Positions 24,001-33,000 of a DNA stretch of 64,000 bases are shown here, one piece after another. Within the stretch, counting starts at the first letter, position 1; each line of letters begins with the position of its first letter. The stretch is from Microcystaceae cyanobacterium (GTDB lineage Bacteria > Cyanobacteriota > Cyanobacteriia > Cyanobacteriales > Microcystaceae): assembly GCA_041746575.1 (NCBI GenBank), contig JBGTGT010000123.1, positions 32,001 through 96,000 on the forward strand, read 5' to 3'. Position numbers: made by a program.

Positions 24001-27000
24001 GCGGTTCAAGTCCTTGCTCGACGATTTTTTGGGGTGCGTCGTGACCCCCCGCTAAGGCACTGCGATAAAGGGGTAAATCGAATAAGCTTTTCATGATGGC
24101 CGGCGCCCTTTTGAGGTCATCTACTGTCTCAAAAAGAGGGGCTATGCGAATCGTCATGGCGTTGGTGGCGGGGTCGTACAGTCCTGCCTCTTGCGCTAGT
24201 AACATCACCTCTAGTACGTCACTGGCCTCATTGGTCATGCTGATAATGTAGGTTTGACAGATTTCTAGACCGAATTCCAGTTGTAATTGACGCAATACCC
24301 TTAAGGTTTCGATGGTTTCAGTTGTTTTAGGGCTAAAGGGAATCTCATGGGGAATAAGAGGGCGACGGGTGCTTAATTCCGCCACTAGCCAGTCAATTTT
24401 TTCCGGTTCTGAGAGGTCTGTGTAGGGGCAGGGTAGAAGTCCTAAATAATCCGCAATTTCAGCAATCGCATCGGCATGAACGGTAGATTCTTGACGAAAA
24501 TCTAGCTGAGTGAGATTGAAGCCGTAAATTTCTACTTGACAAATTAAATTATCTAGTTCTAAGCAACTTAAGCCTGTCTCTGCAAGGGTTGTCCGAATTA
24601 AGGCCAATTCCGACCAAAATTCAATGCCTGAGCAATAACTATGACGGGGATTCATCCGAGTCGCCAGTTGCCGTTCTTCGGGATTTGCTAATAAATTATT
24701 GCGCCTTTTAGTATTTTCAAGGCGTTTCTCAATATACGCCAATTTAAGACGATAAGGCTCTTGACGGTAACGAATCGCTAACTCATCGTAGATGTGGGGC
24801 ATTTCCATTTTGTCCCGTTCTAAGGAGTCGAGTAAACTCTGGGAAACATGACTCCAATGAAGAGAAGGACTGAGAACCTCAGCAAGGTCTTTAATGGCGT
24901 GTAAATATTTTCGTAAGACCATTTCCCGTTGATAACAGGCAGTTTTCCATGTCACCTCTGGGGTGACAAAAGGATTGCCATCGCGATCGCCCCCCACCCA
25001 AGAACCAAAGCGACAAAAATTGGCTTTTGGCGGTCGTAAACGGGGAAAATAGCACTGTAAAGCTTGGGAAAGGCGTTTAGAAAGTTCGGGAATCGCATCA
25101 AATAGGACTTCGTCGAAATAGTGTAGGGCATAGTCCACTTCGTCTAAAACAGTGGGTTTGAACTGATGAAGTTCATCGGTGCGCCACCAAAGGCGAATTT
25201 CTTCCATTAGTTGCGCTTGAGCCGTTTCTGCTTCCCAAGAGGTGGTCAATCCCATCCCTCGAAACGCTTCTTCAGCCTGGTCTAAACAGCGTAAAATTCC
25301 AGCGATACGGCGTTGTTTGCGTCGGATGGTATGACGAACAATTTCTGTAGGATGGGCTGTAAAAACGAGGCGAATATCTAGATGATTGAGTAACCGTTGA
25401 ACTTGTTGAGGCGGAACGTTTAATTGCTTTAATTGTAAGAACAACCAGTGAAATGTGCCATTTTTTTGTGTATTTTCCCCTTCTTCAAGGCTTTTCTCTA
25501 ACATGTTGATGCCAAAAACCAGAGGAGAAATAGATTTTTGGGCTTTTTGACGTGTCTCTGCTTCTTTTTCTTTCTCTTCTTTCATTTCTTGATAATTTGC
25601 CCGTCGAGCCAGTTGCTGATCTCGTTGTTCGTAGTGTTGCTCTACAATATTAATTAATTGGAAATAGAGGGCAAAGGCTCTGGCCGCTCGAATCGCTTCA
25701 TTAAGTTCAAGGGTTTCAATCACTTCAGAAATAGATAAGTCTAAGTCGGCGGCTGTTTGACCTTCTGGGGAACACATTGCCCGTAGTTGATTAAGCAAAT
25801 CCACTAAATCCTGACCACACTCGGAATGCAAAACGGATTCCCAGAGATTTTCTACCAATTTCAAGCGATGTTGCAGGAGAAGTGTTGAGGTAGTGAAGAT
25901 ATTGGTATTCGTTAGGGAAGATTGAAGTAGCGAACTCATGGGAACCTCTAAAAGCGTACCTTAGTGAATAACATAGCGATTAGCTTGACCACTCAATGAT
26001 ATCAGCGATCGTCAAAGATGCGAGAAAAATGGCGGATTGATCCCCTATTTTCTGGGTAATTCCTTAAAAAATGGGCTATTGTGATTTCACAAGCTATCCA
26101 TTGTAGCTTGTATTTTTGATCAAAAAAGTGACGGATTGTACTGAAATCCTACGGTCTAATGGGTTCAAAAACGGAGATCCCTTTGTCTTTTGACAACCGC
26201 ACCGAATCATGAGTCGGTAAAAACGTCCTTTTCATCGGACAGTGCCTCATTTGGCACATTCAGAAGAGGTAAACGTTCTCCCCGAAAGATCTCTTCGCTC
26301 ATTTCACCTATTTGACTCAATCCCTGCTCAATTCCCCGAATAACGGCTATACCAACTAAGAAAGGAGGTGTGAGTAGGCTCAACAAGATTTTGCTATCAA
26401 TTTCAAGGTTATTCATTGTTAAAGTCCAAAAAAGAGAAAGAGGCTGATGGGTATCATTATAAATTATTTGACCTATTAAAGTCATCAAAGCGAGTCATAG
26501 TAAAGGTTTTCACCCTTCATTTTGCCTTTTTTAGACTGCACTCAGCGATATCTTCGAGAAATTCATTTATTTTTTTTCAGGAAAATTTCCCTTAGGTGGC
26601 GTTGATTAGATTAAGAACAATGGCAGTGAATTTAAACATTGCTTCTCATGTAAAGCTCGATTTAGTTAACCCTCACCTCTTGCAAAAGCTTATGATTGTT
26701 ATCATTAAACCAGCAACACCGCAAATCGAAATCCAAAGAATTAGTCATGAAGTTGCCAATTTCAATGTCAAAGTTGAAAAAACTGAAGGTAACCAAAAAA
26801 TAATTCTAGGCTTAATTGGAGAGACATCTACCCTTGATTTACGCCAAATTCAACAAATTAGTCCTTACATTGAAAAAGTGATTCGTATTGAAAAACCTTT
26901 TAAACGAGTCAGTCGCGAATTTCGCAATGGACAAGCGTCTGCTGTCACGGTTTCCACGCCCAATGGTATTGTAACCTTCGGTGAAGCCTTTCCCCTTGTT

Positions 27001-30000: not shown

Positions 30001-33000
30001 GATTCATGGAGCGATCTTTTTACCCCAATGGATTGAACAAAATCCCCAAAAAACCGTTTGCTATCAAAATGAGCATCTGGCGCAAATGTATCATTATCGA
30101 GATACAGGAGCTACTTATCCGAAAATGGTCGTTTGTGAGTTTGCCACGATTACTTTTATGGAAGATTGTGGCGCAGACCGAGATGATGTGATTAATTGTC
30201 ATCCTAGTGAATTACCGTCCCATTTTCCCTATCTAGATCGCCTTGCTTCTTGAATCTTGTTTTTTGGGAAAGAATCACTCATTCTCTATTGTTATTGAGA
30301 GACTACCCAAAAATCACTCTCTCAAAGTTTAAATTAACCTAAAAAATGTAAGGATTGATACGGAAAACCGATATTTTGTTAAGAATATCAAGCCCACGTT
30401 AATTGATTTTAATGTGCTTTACAAAGGTTAACACTTAATCATCTGTTGATGATATAAACGCAATTAATGCGGTTCAATGAACAGATTACTGGAATACTGA
30501 AAAACCAATTTCAATTATTTGCCCCATCTTCCCTTATTTATTCTCAAATTCAGGAGATTAAACCATGACATCCATGAAATACAAAGGTTTTCGCATTGCA
30601 ACTCTAATGGCAGTCGGTTCAACCTTAGCCTTCGCAAGCCACGCCAATGCTACTACCCTGAAAGTCACCATTGAAAGTTTAGCCCCTGCCAATGGAGCAG
30701 TAGTGACTCCTCTTTGGTTTGGTTTGCATGATGGAAGTTTTGACTCCTTCGATAGTGGTAGTGCGGCTTCAACAGGTATTATGCACCTTGCAGAAGACGG
30801 AATTGTCGGTTTAGAAGGAACCGTTCCGGGCGTTGTGGATTATTTATTAGCCAATGGACTGAATCCTGCCGTCTTGCCTCCTCCTGATAATACTATTGCC
30901 GGAATTTTTGCCAATAGCGCGGCCGGAGCAAATGGTGGGGTTCAAGGGATCATCACAGACGTTCCCATTGGCATCGGCCCTGGCCAGACTTTTTCAAGTA
31001 AGATTCGCATTAATGACGCGACGCAAAATCGCTATTTTAGCTATGGTGCGATGTTTTTCCCCAGCAATGACGCATTTATTGCTAATGGTAACCCCTTGGC
31101 GTGGGAAATCTTCGATGGAAGCGGTAAATTTAAGGGGGCTGACTTTATTATCGGTCGCAATGATATTTGGGATGCCGGCACAGAAGTCAATACGGAAACA
31201 CCGGATGATGTCCCTTTTACCTTTGATCGGGTTATTTTTGGCACCGACGAAAACGGCGTCATTACTCCTCATGCGGGTTTTCTGCCTGCCGGAAGTGGCG
31301 GTGTCTTGGACTTCAACAATGGCCAATTTGCTAACGCTGACTTTACCAATAATCCAAACTATCAACTCGCCCGTATTACCGTTACTCAAGTACCTGAACC
31401 CTCTGCCATTCTTGGTTTATTCACCATCGCAGGATTAGGCCTATTAGGACGCCAGTTAAAAAAACATAAGGAGTAATCCCCTTACTGCAAAGTCTATGGG
31501 CAGAGCGAGACTCGAACTCGCAAGACCGAAGCCGCCGCATTTTGAGTGCGGTGCGTCTACCAATTTCGCCATCCGCCCGAAGGGTCAGCTTTTTGATTAT
31601 AGTCCTTTTGGCAATGCTTAAGCAAGTGATCGTATTCAGGAGAGCTTGCCCAGCGATCAATTTCTCTTGCCCGTAAAACAGGAACAGGATGGCTCAGTTG
31701 TTCGGTATGCGCCGTTTTTAGCATTTCTCCTAATTGAGTCTCGCTAATCGCATCATAATCTCTCGCTTGCTCGATGAAAGCTCCTAAGTTTAACTGAGGC
31801 GCAAGGGTAGGAGAGCCTCCTGTTAATTTCATCAAGACCGACATCACCACTTTAGGATCTTGCATTGCTAACAAAGCAGCGCGATCGCAACTGAATTCCG
31901 CACAGCGTACCCATTCTAACATCTGTTGTTGTAACGATTGAGCAATCACCGTTCCCCAATTGGGCAATAATTGAGCCGCTAAGACAATGAGATTGGCTAA
32001 GGTTAAATAAACTCCATGTTCACACTTCAAATGACCTAATTCATGGGCAATGACTGCCTGAATCTCTTCTGGGGTTAACATTTCCACCAAAGAGGTATGA
32101 AGCACGATAAACGGCTGTTTTCCTTGCATCGCAAAGGTATAAGCGTTAGGGCTGGGGTTTTGCTTCAAATAGAGTTGCGGTGGCTCTAAATCTAAGACTT
32201 GACACGCTTCAATGAGCAACTTATGAATATGGGGAAGTTGTTTCTCGCTGATGCGCAAACTTGAAGCAATATTGTCTAAATAAAAAAACTGCTCACCAAT
32301 TGAACCTAAGACATTGCGAACCATCAAATCCAATCCGGGCAGTTGTTTCAGGTTGTTGGTGGCTTCTAAATCAAGGGGATGACGAAAATCATTCGCTTTG
32401 AGACCTAAAAGAAACGTTTTTGAAAATTGCATGGTGTTTAGCTTTCTGTTAACCAATTTTTAACCCGTTGCATACTTTTCCAATCGGGTTTGCGACTTAA
32501 ACCGTCTTCAACATTTTCCAAGACAGAATCCCGAATTTCCGTATCAAAGGACATTAATTGTTGTACGGCTTCGATATGAGGACGAACCCCTTTTGTATCC
32601 GTTTCTAACATGGCTAATACTAAGTTAACCCGCGCCTGTGGTGAACTTTTATCCAGTTTTACACTTTTTTGAGCAAATTTGAGGGCTATTTTGGGTTTGT
32701 CTTCTAATAAGTATAACCAAGCTAAACAAGCCCATCCTGTCGCATTTTTGGGAGTGTGATCGCAAATATCTTGAAAAACGGGGATCAAGACGGTGGCATC
32801 TTCCCCTGCTTTGTAGCGTTCTAACGCTTGATCAAAAAGGTCAGTAACAACTTCGGTCATAGTAAAATCAACAAATTAACGAAATTTAGCAAGAGATAGA
32901 GGGCATTTCTCTACCTCTTTTAGCGTATCAAGTTAAACGCCAAAGGATTTTCCACAACCACAGGTTTGATTTGCGTTAGGATTGGTAAATTGAAAACCCC

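Follow-up and report, generated by a model that had tools for sequence, protein, structure and literature searches.

The window, a 64,000-nucleotide stretch of one contig from a hot-spring cyanobacterium, carries on its plus strand (26596-30253) genes for a DAHP synthase, an MIO-type aromatic ammonia-lyase and a cofactor-free phenolic acid decarboxylase (PAD), with a spondin-like PEP-CTERM gene next to them. What do these three enzymes make, and do they belong to one pathway?

Organization of the gene row

The coordinates of the row are given in Table 1.

Table 1. Features of the gene row and its right border, in window coordinates
Feature	Position	Strand	Evidence or remark
DAHP synthase, type I-beta, with N-terminal ferredoxin-like (FXD) domain	26692..27792	+	PF00793, PF18152, NF009933
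DAHP synthase/lyase intergenic	27793..27868	+	no plus-strand terminator-like site; motif TCTTTTGTCAACCTT 15 nt upstream of the ATG
MIO-dependent aromatic amino acid ammonia-lyase, AvPAL/NpPAL family, 573 aa, predicted TAL	27869..29590	+	PF00221
Lyase/PAD intergenic	29591..29728	+	no plus-strand terminator-like site; motif TCCTTTGTCAACCTT 11 nt upstream of the ATG
Cofactor-free phenolic acid decarboxylase (PAD), 174 aa	29729..30253	+	PF05870
Spondin-domain protein, secreted, PEP-CTERM tail	30565..31476	+	NF038123 E 4.4e-36; PEP-CTERM model E 6e-05
tRNA-Leu(CAA)	31497..31578	-	Rfam tRNA 56.3 bits; ARAGORN

Three co-directional genes separated by 76 and 138 nt had been described in the initial annotation, and the open reading frames were found at these sites, the first running from 26596 to 27792 and the other three, including the spondin-like gene, as in Table 1. 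The 76-nt gap lies between the DAHP synthase and lyase genes, the 138-nt gap between the lyase and PAD genes, and 311 nt separate PAD from the spondin-like gene. No terminator-like site was detected on the plus strand inside 26600-31476. Matches to the consensus promoter were not in excess of shuffled sequences (8 versus a shuffle mean of 11.9), so the operon is proposed from the spacing only. The tRNA gene, 20 nt past the spondin-like gene, forms the right border of the row, and no att-like repeat was found near it. The neighbours of the row in the window are housekeeping genes (ppc, an M48 protease gene, an Fe-S assembly gene and an ABC ATPase gene).

The tie of the spondin-like gene to the pathway is uncertain. 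It has its own AGGAG after the 311-nt gap. Its homologues (56-58% identical) sit between lyase and PAD in loci L007 and L122 of other genomes and carry RTX repeats instead of PEP-CTERM. The family is large, with several more matches on three other contigs of the same genome.

The DAHP synthase matched DAHP_synth_1 (PF00793, E 1.8e-82) and FXD (PF18152, E 2.3e-15), and scored 623.5 bits on NF009933 (cut-off 486), indicating a type I-beta enzyme with an FXD domain. Its frame is open from a GTG at 26596, and its start had been placed at 26620. However, the homologues begin at ATG 26692 and their M1 is invariant (alignment A3), so this ATG is the likely start rather than 26596 or 26620. The enzyme had also been called the second DAHP synthase of the genome, but it is the third: an AroFGH-type paralogue lies on contig C25 and another of the NF009933 type, 64% identical, on contig C126.

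The lyase carries a tyrosine ammonia-lyase signature

The lyase matched Lyase_aromatic (PF00221) with E 9.9e-145 and 483.2 bits (cut-off 27.3). The MIO triad A169-S170-G171 and Tyr80, which we take to be the catalytic lid tyrosine, are invariant in alignment A2. MIO is reported to be made from such an Ala-Ser-Gly triad (PMC9321829). The best solved relative is the PAL of Nostoc punctiforme (2nyf, E 1.1e-258); this enzyme and the PAL of Anabaena variabilis (2nyn, E 9e-254) share family, fold, MIO triad and near-identical length with the window lyase. They differ from it in the selectivity pair, which is Y109-H110 in the lyase and F-L at the same site in both PALs. In the 2nyf alignment 'mryhk' of the query stands against 'iwflk', indicating that the difference is real. 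The lyase is 69% identical to the F-L lyases of Nostoc (alignment A2). An N-Q pair lies within 'AEQFNQNINSQG' ('FNQN').

According to Brack 2022 (PMC9321829), TALs carry the pairs H/L, Y/H, F/H or S/H, PALs F/L, and HALs S/H with Q/E; a TAL is recognized by such a pair at positions 89/90 of RsTAL in combination with N/Q at 435/436. The lyase shows this combination, Y109-H110 plus N-Q, with the RsTAL numbering mapped through the F-L position of NpPAL and not by direct alignment to RsTAL. The initial annotation had doubted that Y-H fits either PAL or TAL, and this doubt is largely resolved, Y/H being a published TAL signature, with that one paper's summary of Jendresen 2015 and the likely identity of HaTAL1/2 (below) as the basis. 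Herpetosiphon aurantiacus is the source of the TAL HaTAL1. Its strain DSM 785 has three PF00221 genes, one HAL-like with S-H and Q..E in alignment A2, and two AvPAL-like, both Y-H; we infer that the latter two are HaTAL1/2. TALrpc, the cyanobacterial TAL that Brack assayed (PMC9321829), sits on an H/L branch and so lends no support to reading a Y-H lyase as a TAL.

None of the NCBIfam equivalog models matched the lyase at its cut-off. The top match was the PAL model TIGR01226 (377.9 bits, cut-off 519.15), and assignment as a PAL was rejected on this score and on the Y-H pair. Assignment as a HAL was rejected because Y-H with N-Q replaces S-H with Q/E (or T/E), and TIGR01225 scored 330 (cut-off 539). 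Among characterised enzymes, none with more than about 65% identity could be identified with certainty. The residue pairs lead us to predict a tyrosine ammonia-lyase.

The decarboxylase is intact and rare in cyanobacteria

PAD matched PA_decarbox (PF05870) with E 1.8e-74 and 249.1 bits (cut-off 24.6), and solved PADs, with 2p8g, 2w2a and 4alb among the matches, at E 8e-74 to 5e-50. Residues Y22, Y24, R52 and E75, presumably equivalent to Y11, Y13, R41 and E64 of the B. subtilis enzyme, are invariant in 27 PADs (alignment A1). No signal peptide was evident. PADs are reported to require a para-hydroxyl strictly (PMC6644310) and to accept caffeate and ferulate as well (PMC4460750). Consistent with the rarity claimed earlier, PF05870 was above cut-off in 1/401 sampled genomes of the phylum, namely the source genome, and in 0/20 genomes of the source's family. 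The source genome, 99.8% complete, holds one lyase and one PAD.

In Firmicutes, pad genes are controlled by the PadR repressor, and PadA/PadC act on plant-derived acids. The window PAD belongs to the same family as PadA/PadC of Bacillus and Lactobacillus and has the same catalytic residues, but it follows a lyase gene, and PadR (PF03551) was absent from its contig, the matches in the genome being on contigs C8 and C80 only. A PadR-controlled phenolic acid detoxification locus was rejected because no PadR gene lies beside pad.

Lyase and PAD genes were joined several times

Among the 80 closest lyase loci, a CoA ligase (within 5 kb and >50% identical to that of locus L123) lies just downstream of the lyase in 67, PAD in 4 and neither in 9, and a DAHP synthase lies just upstream in 34. 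The loci with a CoA ligase are of the furanolide cluster type. The CoA ligase was absent from all 4 PAD-linked loci and from beside the 10 PAD-linked lyases of the lyase tree (0/10), suggesting that PAD stands in for the CoA ligase. The closest lyase not linked to PAD, that of L123, is 81% identical and also Y-H; downstream of it are a CoA ligase, a ThDP enzyme, a KASIII-like enzyme, a chorismate mutase and a prephenate dehydrogenase.

The recurrence of the lyase-PAD pair, already noted in the initial annotation, was seen in four cyanobacterial loci (L006, L007, L122 and L125) as well as in Polyangiaceae-like loci. The cyanobacterial loci with the cassette, four or five in number, form a single clade and do not count as independent cases. 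A lyase adjoined PAD in 15 of 80 metagenomic PAD loci (2 Y-H, 11 S-H and 2 cut off), and both aligned S-H lyases from PAD loci have the N-Q pair. PADs next to Y-H lyases fall at three places on the PAD tree, and a single group, chosen after inspection of the tree, was rejected (p-AU 4.9e-05). On the lyase tree, PAD linkage needs 5 changes, 4 of them forced by starred branches. Lyase-PAD pairs were assembled several times: in the cyanobacterial clade, in Bacteroidota, on one metagenome contig and in Polyangiaceae-like loci, where the lyase is S-H/N-Q. The two-gene pair stands by itself, without a DAHP synthase, in the Bacteroidota and Polyangiaceae-like loci. L125 has two methyltransferase genes before the lyase and a 2OG-oxygenase-like gene after PAD; no tailoring enzyme is conserved throughout the cassette loci.

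Styrene had been offered as an alternative product. It is unlikely, because PAD depends strictly on the para-hydroxyl (PMC6644310) and an F-L lyase was found beside PAD in neither the 80 lyase loci nor the 80 PAD loci, an absence of little statistical weight given that 24/80 lyases are F-L and only about 3 PAD recruitments are independent (chance about 1 in 3).

Comparison with known pathways

In the furanolide clusters (cyanobacterin cyb, nostoclide ncl and maculalactone mac), tyrosine is reported to be deaminated by CybB, and macA encodes a DAHP synthase (PMC13288894). The window shares their upstream module, in which a DAHP synthase precedes a lyase of the AvPAL family, and the gene order of L123 is exactly the layout described for these clusters. 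They also have a CoA ligase, a ThDP enzyme and a furanolide synthase, whereas the window has PAD in the place of the CoA ligase. Searches with the L123 proteins (tblastn, 16001-42000 of the window) found nothing for these three enzymes, and in genome-wide queries the best matches to the CoA ligase and the furanolide synthase were 31% and 29% identical, respectively. Membership in the furanolide clusters was rejected, only the lyase and the DAHP synthase being present.

The bagremycin/ferroverdin cluster of Streptomyces is described as having a TAL (FevV/BagA), a UbiD-UbiX decarboxylase (FevK/FevL) and a DAHP synthase (FevY/BagF); it is likewise a natural cluster that leads from tyrosine via p-coumarate to p-vinylphenol and includes its own DAHP synthase gene (PMC6692506). 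Its decarboxylase, however, is the prFMN-dependent UbiD/UbiX and not a cofactor-free PAD, and no UbiD/UbiX was found among the Pfam-scanned open reading frames of 16317-38644. Its TAL and its DAHP synthase are of different lineages from those of the window (the window proteins scored 275 on NF041222, cut-off 1000, and 305 on NF041229, cut-off 700). In bagremycin, p-vinylphenol is reported as an intermediate esterified to 3,4-AHBA (PMC6692506), whereas no further enzyme is linked to the window row. The row works alike but was not assigned to this pathway type, the TAL and DAHP synthase scores being far below cut-off and UbiD/UbiX missing.

Engineered 4-hydroxystyrene pathways, called artificial in the sources consulted (e.g. 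PMC4460750, PMC10360455), rely on both reactions and both enzyme families, frequently supplemented by a feedback-resistant DAHP synthase. They mix genes of different organisms, whereas the window arrangement is native and recurs in nature.

Proposed pathway and alternatives

We consider it probable that the three genes are a small operon for the biosynthesis of 4-vinylphenol (4-hydroxystyrene), made de novo from the cell's own tyrosine. The extra DAHP synthase would join PEP and erythrose-4-phosphate and drive carbon into the shikimate pathway, as its family and the presence of the same gene in related clusters suggest. L-tyrosine would come from housekeeping enzymes encoded elsewhere; the row had been called self-contained, but the remaining steps of the shikimate and tyrosine pathway are encoded outside it. 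The lyase would convert L-tyrosine to trans-p-coumarate and ammonia, as its Y-H and N-Q signature and its relatives indicate. PAD would then split CO2 from p-coumarate, by way of a quinone methide, to leave 4-vinylphenol, consistent with its intact catalytic residues and the strict substrate rule of the family. Because no CoA ligase, furanolide synthase or other p-coumarate consumer was found nearby or elsewhere in the genome, 4-vinylphenol is probably the end product or is released; we would guess at a role as an allelochemical or antimicrobial. The DAHP synthase-lyase pair probably derives from furanolide-type clusters, with the CoA ligase replaced by PAD. The core of the initial reading, in which PAD turns the lyase product into 4-vinylphenol and a dedicated DAHP synthase supplies precursor, is supported by the Y-H pair, the CoA ligase replacement and the repeated independent assembly.

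4-Vinylphenol could instead be merely an intermediate, built into a larger natural product or sheath component by unlinked enzymes through methylation, oxidation, esterification or polymerisation. p-Vinylphenol is a building block in bagremycin and ferroverdin (PMC6692506), the methyltransferase and 2OG-oxygenase-like genes of L125 flank its lyase and PAD, and in the window, L007 and L122 the cassette contains or adjoins a gene for a secreted spondin-domain protein. We regard this as rather unlikely, since the cassette loci share no tailoring enzyme, the window neighbours are housekeeping genes and the Bacteroidota and Polyangiaceae-like loci have just the pair. The lack of a DAHP synthase in those pairs would suit a catabolic or protective role, in which the lyase frees tyrosine ammonia as a nitrogen source and PAD clears inhibitory p-coumarate, or PAD detoxifies external hydroxycinnamates like PadA/PadC. 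PADs have been described as coumaric acid degradation enzymes (PMC6644310), and TALs are product-inhibited (TALrpc Ki 0.051 mM; PMC9321829). Such a role is nevertheless improbable: the dedicated DAHP synthase points to the making of tyrosine and not its use, the lyase clade is nested among biosynthetic CoA-ligase-linked lyases, and the contig lacks PadR.

It is quite improbable that the lyase prefers another amino acid, either phenylalanine, giving cinnamate that PAD could not use, so that the genes would be mere neighbours, or L-DOPA or a substituted tyrosine, giving 4-vinylcatechol or a relative. The identity to the Nostoc F-L lyases, the solved PALs as best relatives and the below-cut-off PAL model as top match agree with the former, and the acceptance of caffeate and ferulate by PADs (PMC4460750) with the latter. 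But Y-H is not the PAL pair, the row encodes no hydroxylase, and, were the genes unrelated, nothing would explain why PAD came to stand beside lyases with TAL-type pairs on repeated, independent occasions.

With the preferred reading, synthesis of 4-vinylphenol by a predicted TAL and PAD, the novelty seen in the initial annotation holds in part. A natural clustered route to p-vinylphenol is already published for bagremycin/ferroverdin, with UbiD/UbiX in place of PAD (PMC6692506). The conversion of tyrosine to 4-vinylphenol by TAL and PAD, hitherto described mainly as an engineered route, would thus have a natural counterpart in this cyanobacterium.

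Organization of the gene row

The genes for DAHP synthase, an MIO-type ammonia-lyase and a phenolic acid decarboxylase (PAD) were followed in the same orientation by a gene for a spondin-like PEP-CTERM protein, with intergenic gaps of 76, 138 and 311 nt. The initial annotation had described the first three as an operon, and their families and positions were confirmed with two corrections, both concerning the DAHP synthase. Its likely start is the Met encoded at 26692, since homologues begin at that Met. The genome of the window (4.2 Mb, 134 contigs, 99.8% complete) encodes one PAD, one lyase and three DAHP synthases. 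The gene had been rightly seen as an extra copy but counted as the second, and it is the third. The other two are an AroFGH-type enzyme on contig C25 and an NF009933-type enzyme on C126, which is 64% identical to that of the window.

Features of the window and of homologous loci (positions within each record)
Record	Feature	Position	Strand	Remarks
Window	PEP carboxylase	22895-25939	-	divergent, 650-750 nt upstream of DAHP synthase gene
Window	DAHP synthase ORF	26596-27792	+	PF00793 E 1.8e-82; N-terminal ferredoxin-like PF18152; NF009933 623.5 bits (cut-off 486)
Window	15-nt motif, copy 1	27839-27853	+	15 nt before lyase ATG
Window	Aromatic amino acid lyase ORF	27869-29590	+	PF00221 E 9.9e-145
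Window	15-nt motif, copy 2	29703-29717	+	11 nt before PAD start
Window	Phenolic acid decarboxylase ORF	29729-30253	+	PF05870 E 1.8e-74
Window	Spondin-domain protein with PEP-CTERM tail	30565-31476	+	
Window	tRNA-Leu(CAA)	31497-31578	-	20 nt past spondin-like gene; covers last 22 nt of M48 protease ORF call
Window	M48 protease ORF call	31557-32456	-	downstream of row
L006	218-aa DAHP synthase ORF	9278-9934		ahead of lyase-PAD pair
L007	Spondin-domain homologue	4366-5535		between lyase and PAD
L122	Spondin-domain homologue	7931-9178	-	between lyase and PAD
L125	Variant cassette	13-5916		
L070	DUF1348/SnoaL-like gene	12281-12691	-	convergent, right after PAD
L075	DUF1348/SnoaL-like gene	12426-12836	-	convergent, right after PAD
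L213	Relic of PAD C-terminus	G546:C167:14595-14684	-	41 codons, open

The short gaps and the failure to find plus-strand terminator-like sites inside the row are the two grounds on which co-transcription is predicted. The promoter scan was uninformative (8 promoter-like sites versus a shuffle mean of 11.9), and the four sequencing runs listed for window positions 26600-31480 are all DNA runs of one study. A 15-nt motif, TC(T/C)TTTGTCAACCTT, was found before the lyase and PAD genes and nowhere else in the window. As a signal it was not significant, because at least two matches also occurred in 10 of 100 shuffles. An Rfam scan of 25900-31700 matched the tRNA alone, with no riboswitch or leader. 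The row did not differ from its flanks in GC content, and neither an integrase nor an att-like repeat of the tRNA-Leu end was found near it. No empty insertion site could be defined, because ppc and the M48 gene were not neighbours in 25 genomes of the family. PEP is a substrate of both PEP carboxylase and DAHP synthase; the two genes were not adjacent in the relatives searched, and their adjacency here is therefore probably a coincidence.

The spondin-like gene has its own AGGAG after the 311-nt gap. In two other cyanobacterial lyase-PAD loci, L007 and L122, a spondin-domain homologue 56-58% identical to that of the window was found, ending in RTX calcium-binding repeats and not in a PEP-CTERM tail. 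The same domain is thus joined to different predicted export signals. The family is a large one, and other parts of the window's own genome contain several more matches to it, so a tie of this gene to the pathway is uncertain.

Predicted activities of PAD and the lyase

PAD aligned with solved PADs over its full length (E 8e-74 to 5e-50). Residues Y22, Y24, R52 and E75 were invariant among 27 diverse PADs, and we take them to be the catalytic Y11, Y13, R41 and E64 of the Bacillus subtilis enzyme. According to PMC6644310, PADs strictly require a para-hydroxyl and their activity is abolished when it is replaced. Cinnamate is therefore no PAD substrate and styrene no expected product. The initial annotation had proposed vinylphenol or styrene as the product; vinylphenol is supported by the lyase and PAD signatures and by the gene context, and styrene is not supported.

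The solved structures closest to the lyase were the cyanobacterial phenylalanine ammonia-lyases (PALs) 2nyf (E 1e-258) and 2nyn (E 9e-254). The protein carries the MIO triad A169-S170-G171, Tyr80 and the N-Q pair ('AEQFNQNINSQG'), and none of the NCBIfam equivalog models attained its cut-off. In the alignment, Y109-H110 stood at the F-L selectivity pair of 2nyf and 2nyn. This Y-H pair could not be placed initially, and it is among the published pairs of tyrosine ammonia-lyases (TALs). As given by Brack et al. 2022 (PMC9321829), which bases the TAL signature pairs on Jendresen 2015, RsTAL positions 89/90 are H/L, Y/H, F/H or S/H in TALs and F/L in PALs, and histidine ammonia-lyases (HALs) have S/H with Q/E replacing N/Q. 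HaTAL1, a widely used TAL, comes from Herpetosiphon aurantiacus DSM 785 (PMC10360455). The three PF00221 genes of this strain comprised one HAL-like gene (S-H, Q..E) and two AvPAL-like genes, both with Y-H, and we infer that the latter two are HaTAL1 and HaTAL2. Two further candidates were rejected. The Rivularia enzyme TALrpc, the cyanobacterial TAL tested by Brack, lies on an H/L branch and does not support Y-H, and PDB 9eq5 (E 6.6e-155), considered as a Y-H structure, has F-L.

PAD at the usual place of a CoA ligase

Scanning species-representative genomes with the lyase gave the 80 closest loci, at 63-82% identity. Their selectivity pair was Y-H in 55, F-L in 24 and L-M in one, and a DAHP synthase gene lay no more than 1 kb upstream in 34 (21 Y-H, 13 F-L). 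In 67 of the 80, a CoA ligase more than 50% identical to that of L123, the closest PAD-less lyase locus, was found within 5 kb; genes for a ThDP enzyme and a KASIII-like enzyme usually came next. PAD replaced the CoA ligase in four, two from cyanobacterial MAGs (L006, L007) and two from Bacteroidota (L070, L075). Neither gene was found in the remaining nine; in four of these the contig stops within 2 kb. One further genome, of the same order, added L122 as a fifth PAD locus. The CoA ligase was absent from every PAD locus.

L123 (G527:C1:236000-254000) belongs to a near-complete genome of the same order, and a DAHP synthase heads its gene set. Its Y-H lyase is 81% identical to that of the window and is followed by the CoA ligase, the ThDP enzyme, the KASIII-like enzyme, MatE, chorismate mutase and prephenate dehydrogenase. 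The set looks like a furanolide-type cluster not described before. Furanolide clusters have the gene layout of L123; PMC13288894 gives CybB as their tyrosine-deaminating enzyme, CybC as the one that activates 4-coumarate, and macA as a DAHP synthase gene. The DAHP synthase-lyase module of the window is thus a known precursor-supply module, with PAD at the usual place of the CoA ligase. When the own genome was searched with CoA ligase and furanolide synthase queries, the best matches were 31% and 29% identical, leaving PAD as the sole evident consumer of the lyase product.

The loci L071 and L072 concern a set of lyase, CoA ligase, ThDP enzyme and KASIII-like genes on a 79.8-kb Phormidium plasmid record. 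Its lyase stretch matches that of a Floridaenema genome without a difference, suggesting that a furanolide-type cluster moved recently by plasmid. In L006, on the same contig of a Xenococcaceae MAG as L124, the DAHP synthase ahead of the lyase-PAD pair is short; its ferredoxin-like domain joins directly to position 107 of the catalytic-domain profile, suggesting either an internal deletion or a fault of the assembly.

Phylogeny and distribution of the lyase-PAD pair

When metagenomes were scanned with a PAD alignment, 80 PAD loci were obtained, and in 15 of them a lyase directly adjoined PAD (2 Y-H, 11 S-H, 2 cut before the motif). One Y-H locus, L125, has a lyase 76% identical to that of the window and a PAD 98.9% identical to one named from a Pleurocapsa MAG. 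In the other, L156, which includes a DAHP synthase, the lyase is 71% and the PAD just 61% identical. The eleven S-H lyases were 30-34% identical to the window lyase; their loci have 63-66% GC, and one of their PADs is identical to a protein that bears the name of a Polyangiaceae MAG. Both S-H lyases that were aligned carry N-Q, which is of the TAL/TAM type and not of the HAL type.

In the PAD tree, the five cyanobacterial PADs formed one clade (SH-aLRT 97), placed with weak support (87-88) beside the Polyangiaceae-like lyase-linked PADs. The PADs of Bacteroidota and L156 were placed elsewhere. Forcing all eight PADs that adjoin Y-H lyases into one clade was rejected (p-AU 4.9e-05, for a group named after the tree had been seen). 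In the lyase tree, the cyanobacterial PAD-linked lyases fell in a clade of six that includes L123 (support 99), nested in CoA-ligase-linked Y-H lyases; the Bacteroidota lyases were nested among Nostocales lyases (99), and L156 stood at the base of an F-L clade (96). From these separate placements, the pair has been assembled at least three times within the AvPAL-type lyase family and one further time with a different lyase lineage. Among the 80 lyase loci and 80 PAD loci, no lyase found beside PAD was of the F-L type, a result that chance alone gives about one time in three. With few independent events the missing pairs are weak evidence, and a statistical link between Y-H and PAD was rejected as underpowered.

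The surroundings of the pair also vary. In L125, the place of the DAHP synthase ahead of the lyase and PAD is taken by two methyltransferase genes, a PEMT-like one and another with a winged HTH, and PAD is followed by a gene for an Asp/Arg-hydroxylase-like oxygenase; this hints at a methylated or hydroxylated vinylphenol. The two Bacteroidota loci share the DUF1348/SnoaL-like gene and differ in their remaining neighbours.

Among 401 genomes sampled from the phylum, only that of the window had a PF05870 match above the cut-off; among 20 genomes of the family there was none. The lyase was present in 32 of 201 genomes of the order, the window's own included, and in none of 10 of the family; it was not found in two genomes of the same genus (77% and 92% complete). 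The 92% complete one contains the relic L213, 57% identical to PAD residues 137-166 and flanked by an unrelated ORF of 229 aa and a hydrophobic one of 192 aa. The window shared no synteny with L006, L007 or L122 beyond the cassette. This sparse occurrence and lack of shared synteny indicate that the cassette is patchy, and it was probably acquired or often lost.

Discussion

Judged from sequence and context, DAHP synthase would direct more flux into the shikimate pathway, housekeeping enzymes would make tyrosine, the lyase would convert it to p-coumarate, and PAD would convert p-coumarate to 4-vinylphenol and CO2. The TAL plus PAD combination is the standard "artificial" route to 4-hydroxystyrene (PMC4460750, PMC10360455). 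No description of a native TAL-PAD operon was found in a full-text literature search, the scope of which ended at subscription journals. The novelty claimed initially has nevertheless to be reduced. In the bagremycin/ferroverdin cluster of Streptomyces, as described in PMC6692506, tyrosine is converted to p-vinylphenol via a TAL (FevV/BagA) and UbiD/UbiX (FevK/FevL), together with a DAHP synthase (FevY/BagF). The chemical logic is alike, but there the decarboxylase is of another family, the lineages are different and vinylphenol is an intermediate. The "vinylphenol" moiety of hyellamide was rejected as a related case, because it arises by oxidative decarboxylation of N-acyltyrosine. Since all enzyme families and reactions are known and this natural precedent exists, the significance is limited. 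We rate the interest of the finding as moderate; most interesting is that the pair has been put together repeatedly in nature, in different phyla.

We tentatively consider, with somewhat more doubt than confidence, that free-standing TAL-PAD cassettes, some with a DAHP synthase and some without, have gone unrecognised as a bacterial route to vinylphenols, one that is shuffled horizontally and was assembled independently on at least three or four occasions, among Cyanobacteria, Bacteroidota and Polyangiaceae-like myxobacteria. The locus is also a clear case of cluster evolution, in which the consumer of a shared intermediate was swapped from a CoA ligase to PAD. A native operon of this design in a CO2-fixing organism would mean that nature already uses the TAL plus PAD route of engineers, and the hot-spring organism would offer a ready-made, co-evolved enzyme set. 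That the pair recurs in three phyla suggests that vinylphenol made de novo has an ecological role; to our knowledge, nobody has looked for one. If the reading is true, 4-vinylphenol or a simple derivative, such as a methyl ether (compare L125), would be a diffusible end product made de novo, serving as allelochemical or signal. Microbiology knows vinylphenols mostly from the breakdown of plant hydroxycinnamates. They would then not be merely breakdown products of plant phenolics, and this cyanobacterium would make vinylphenol from CO2.
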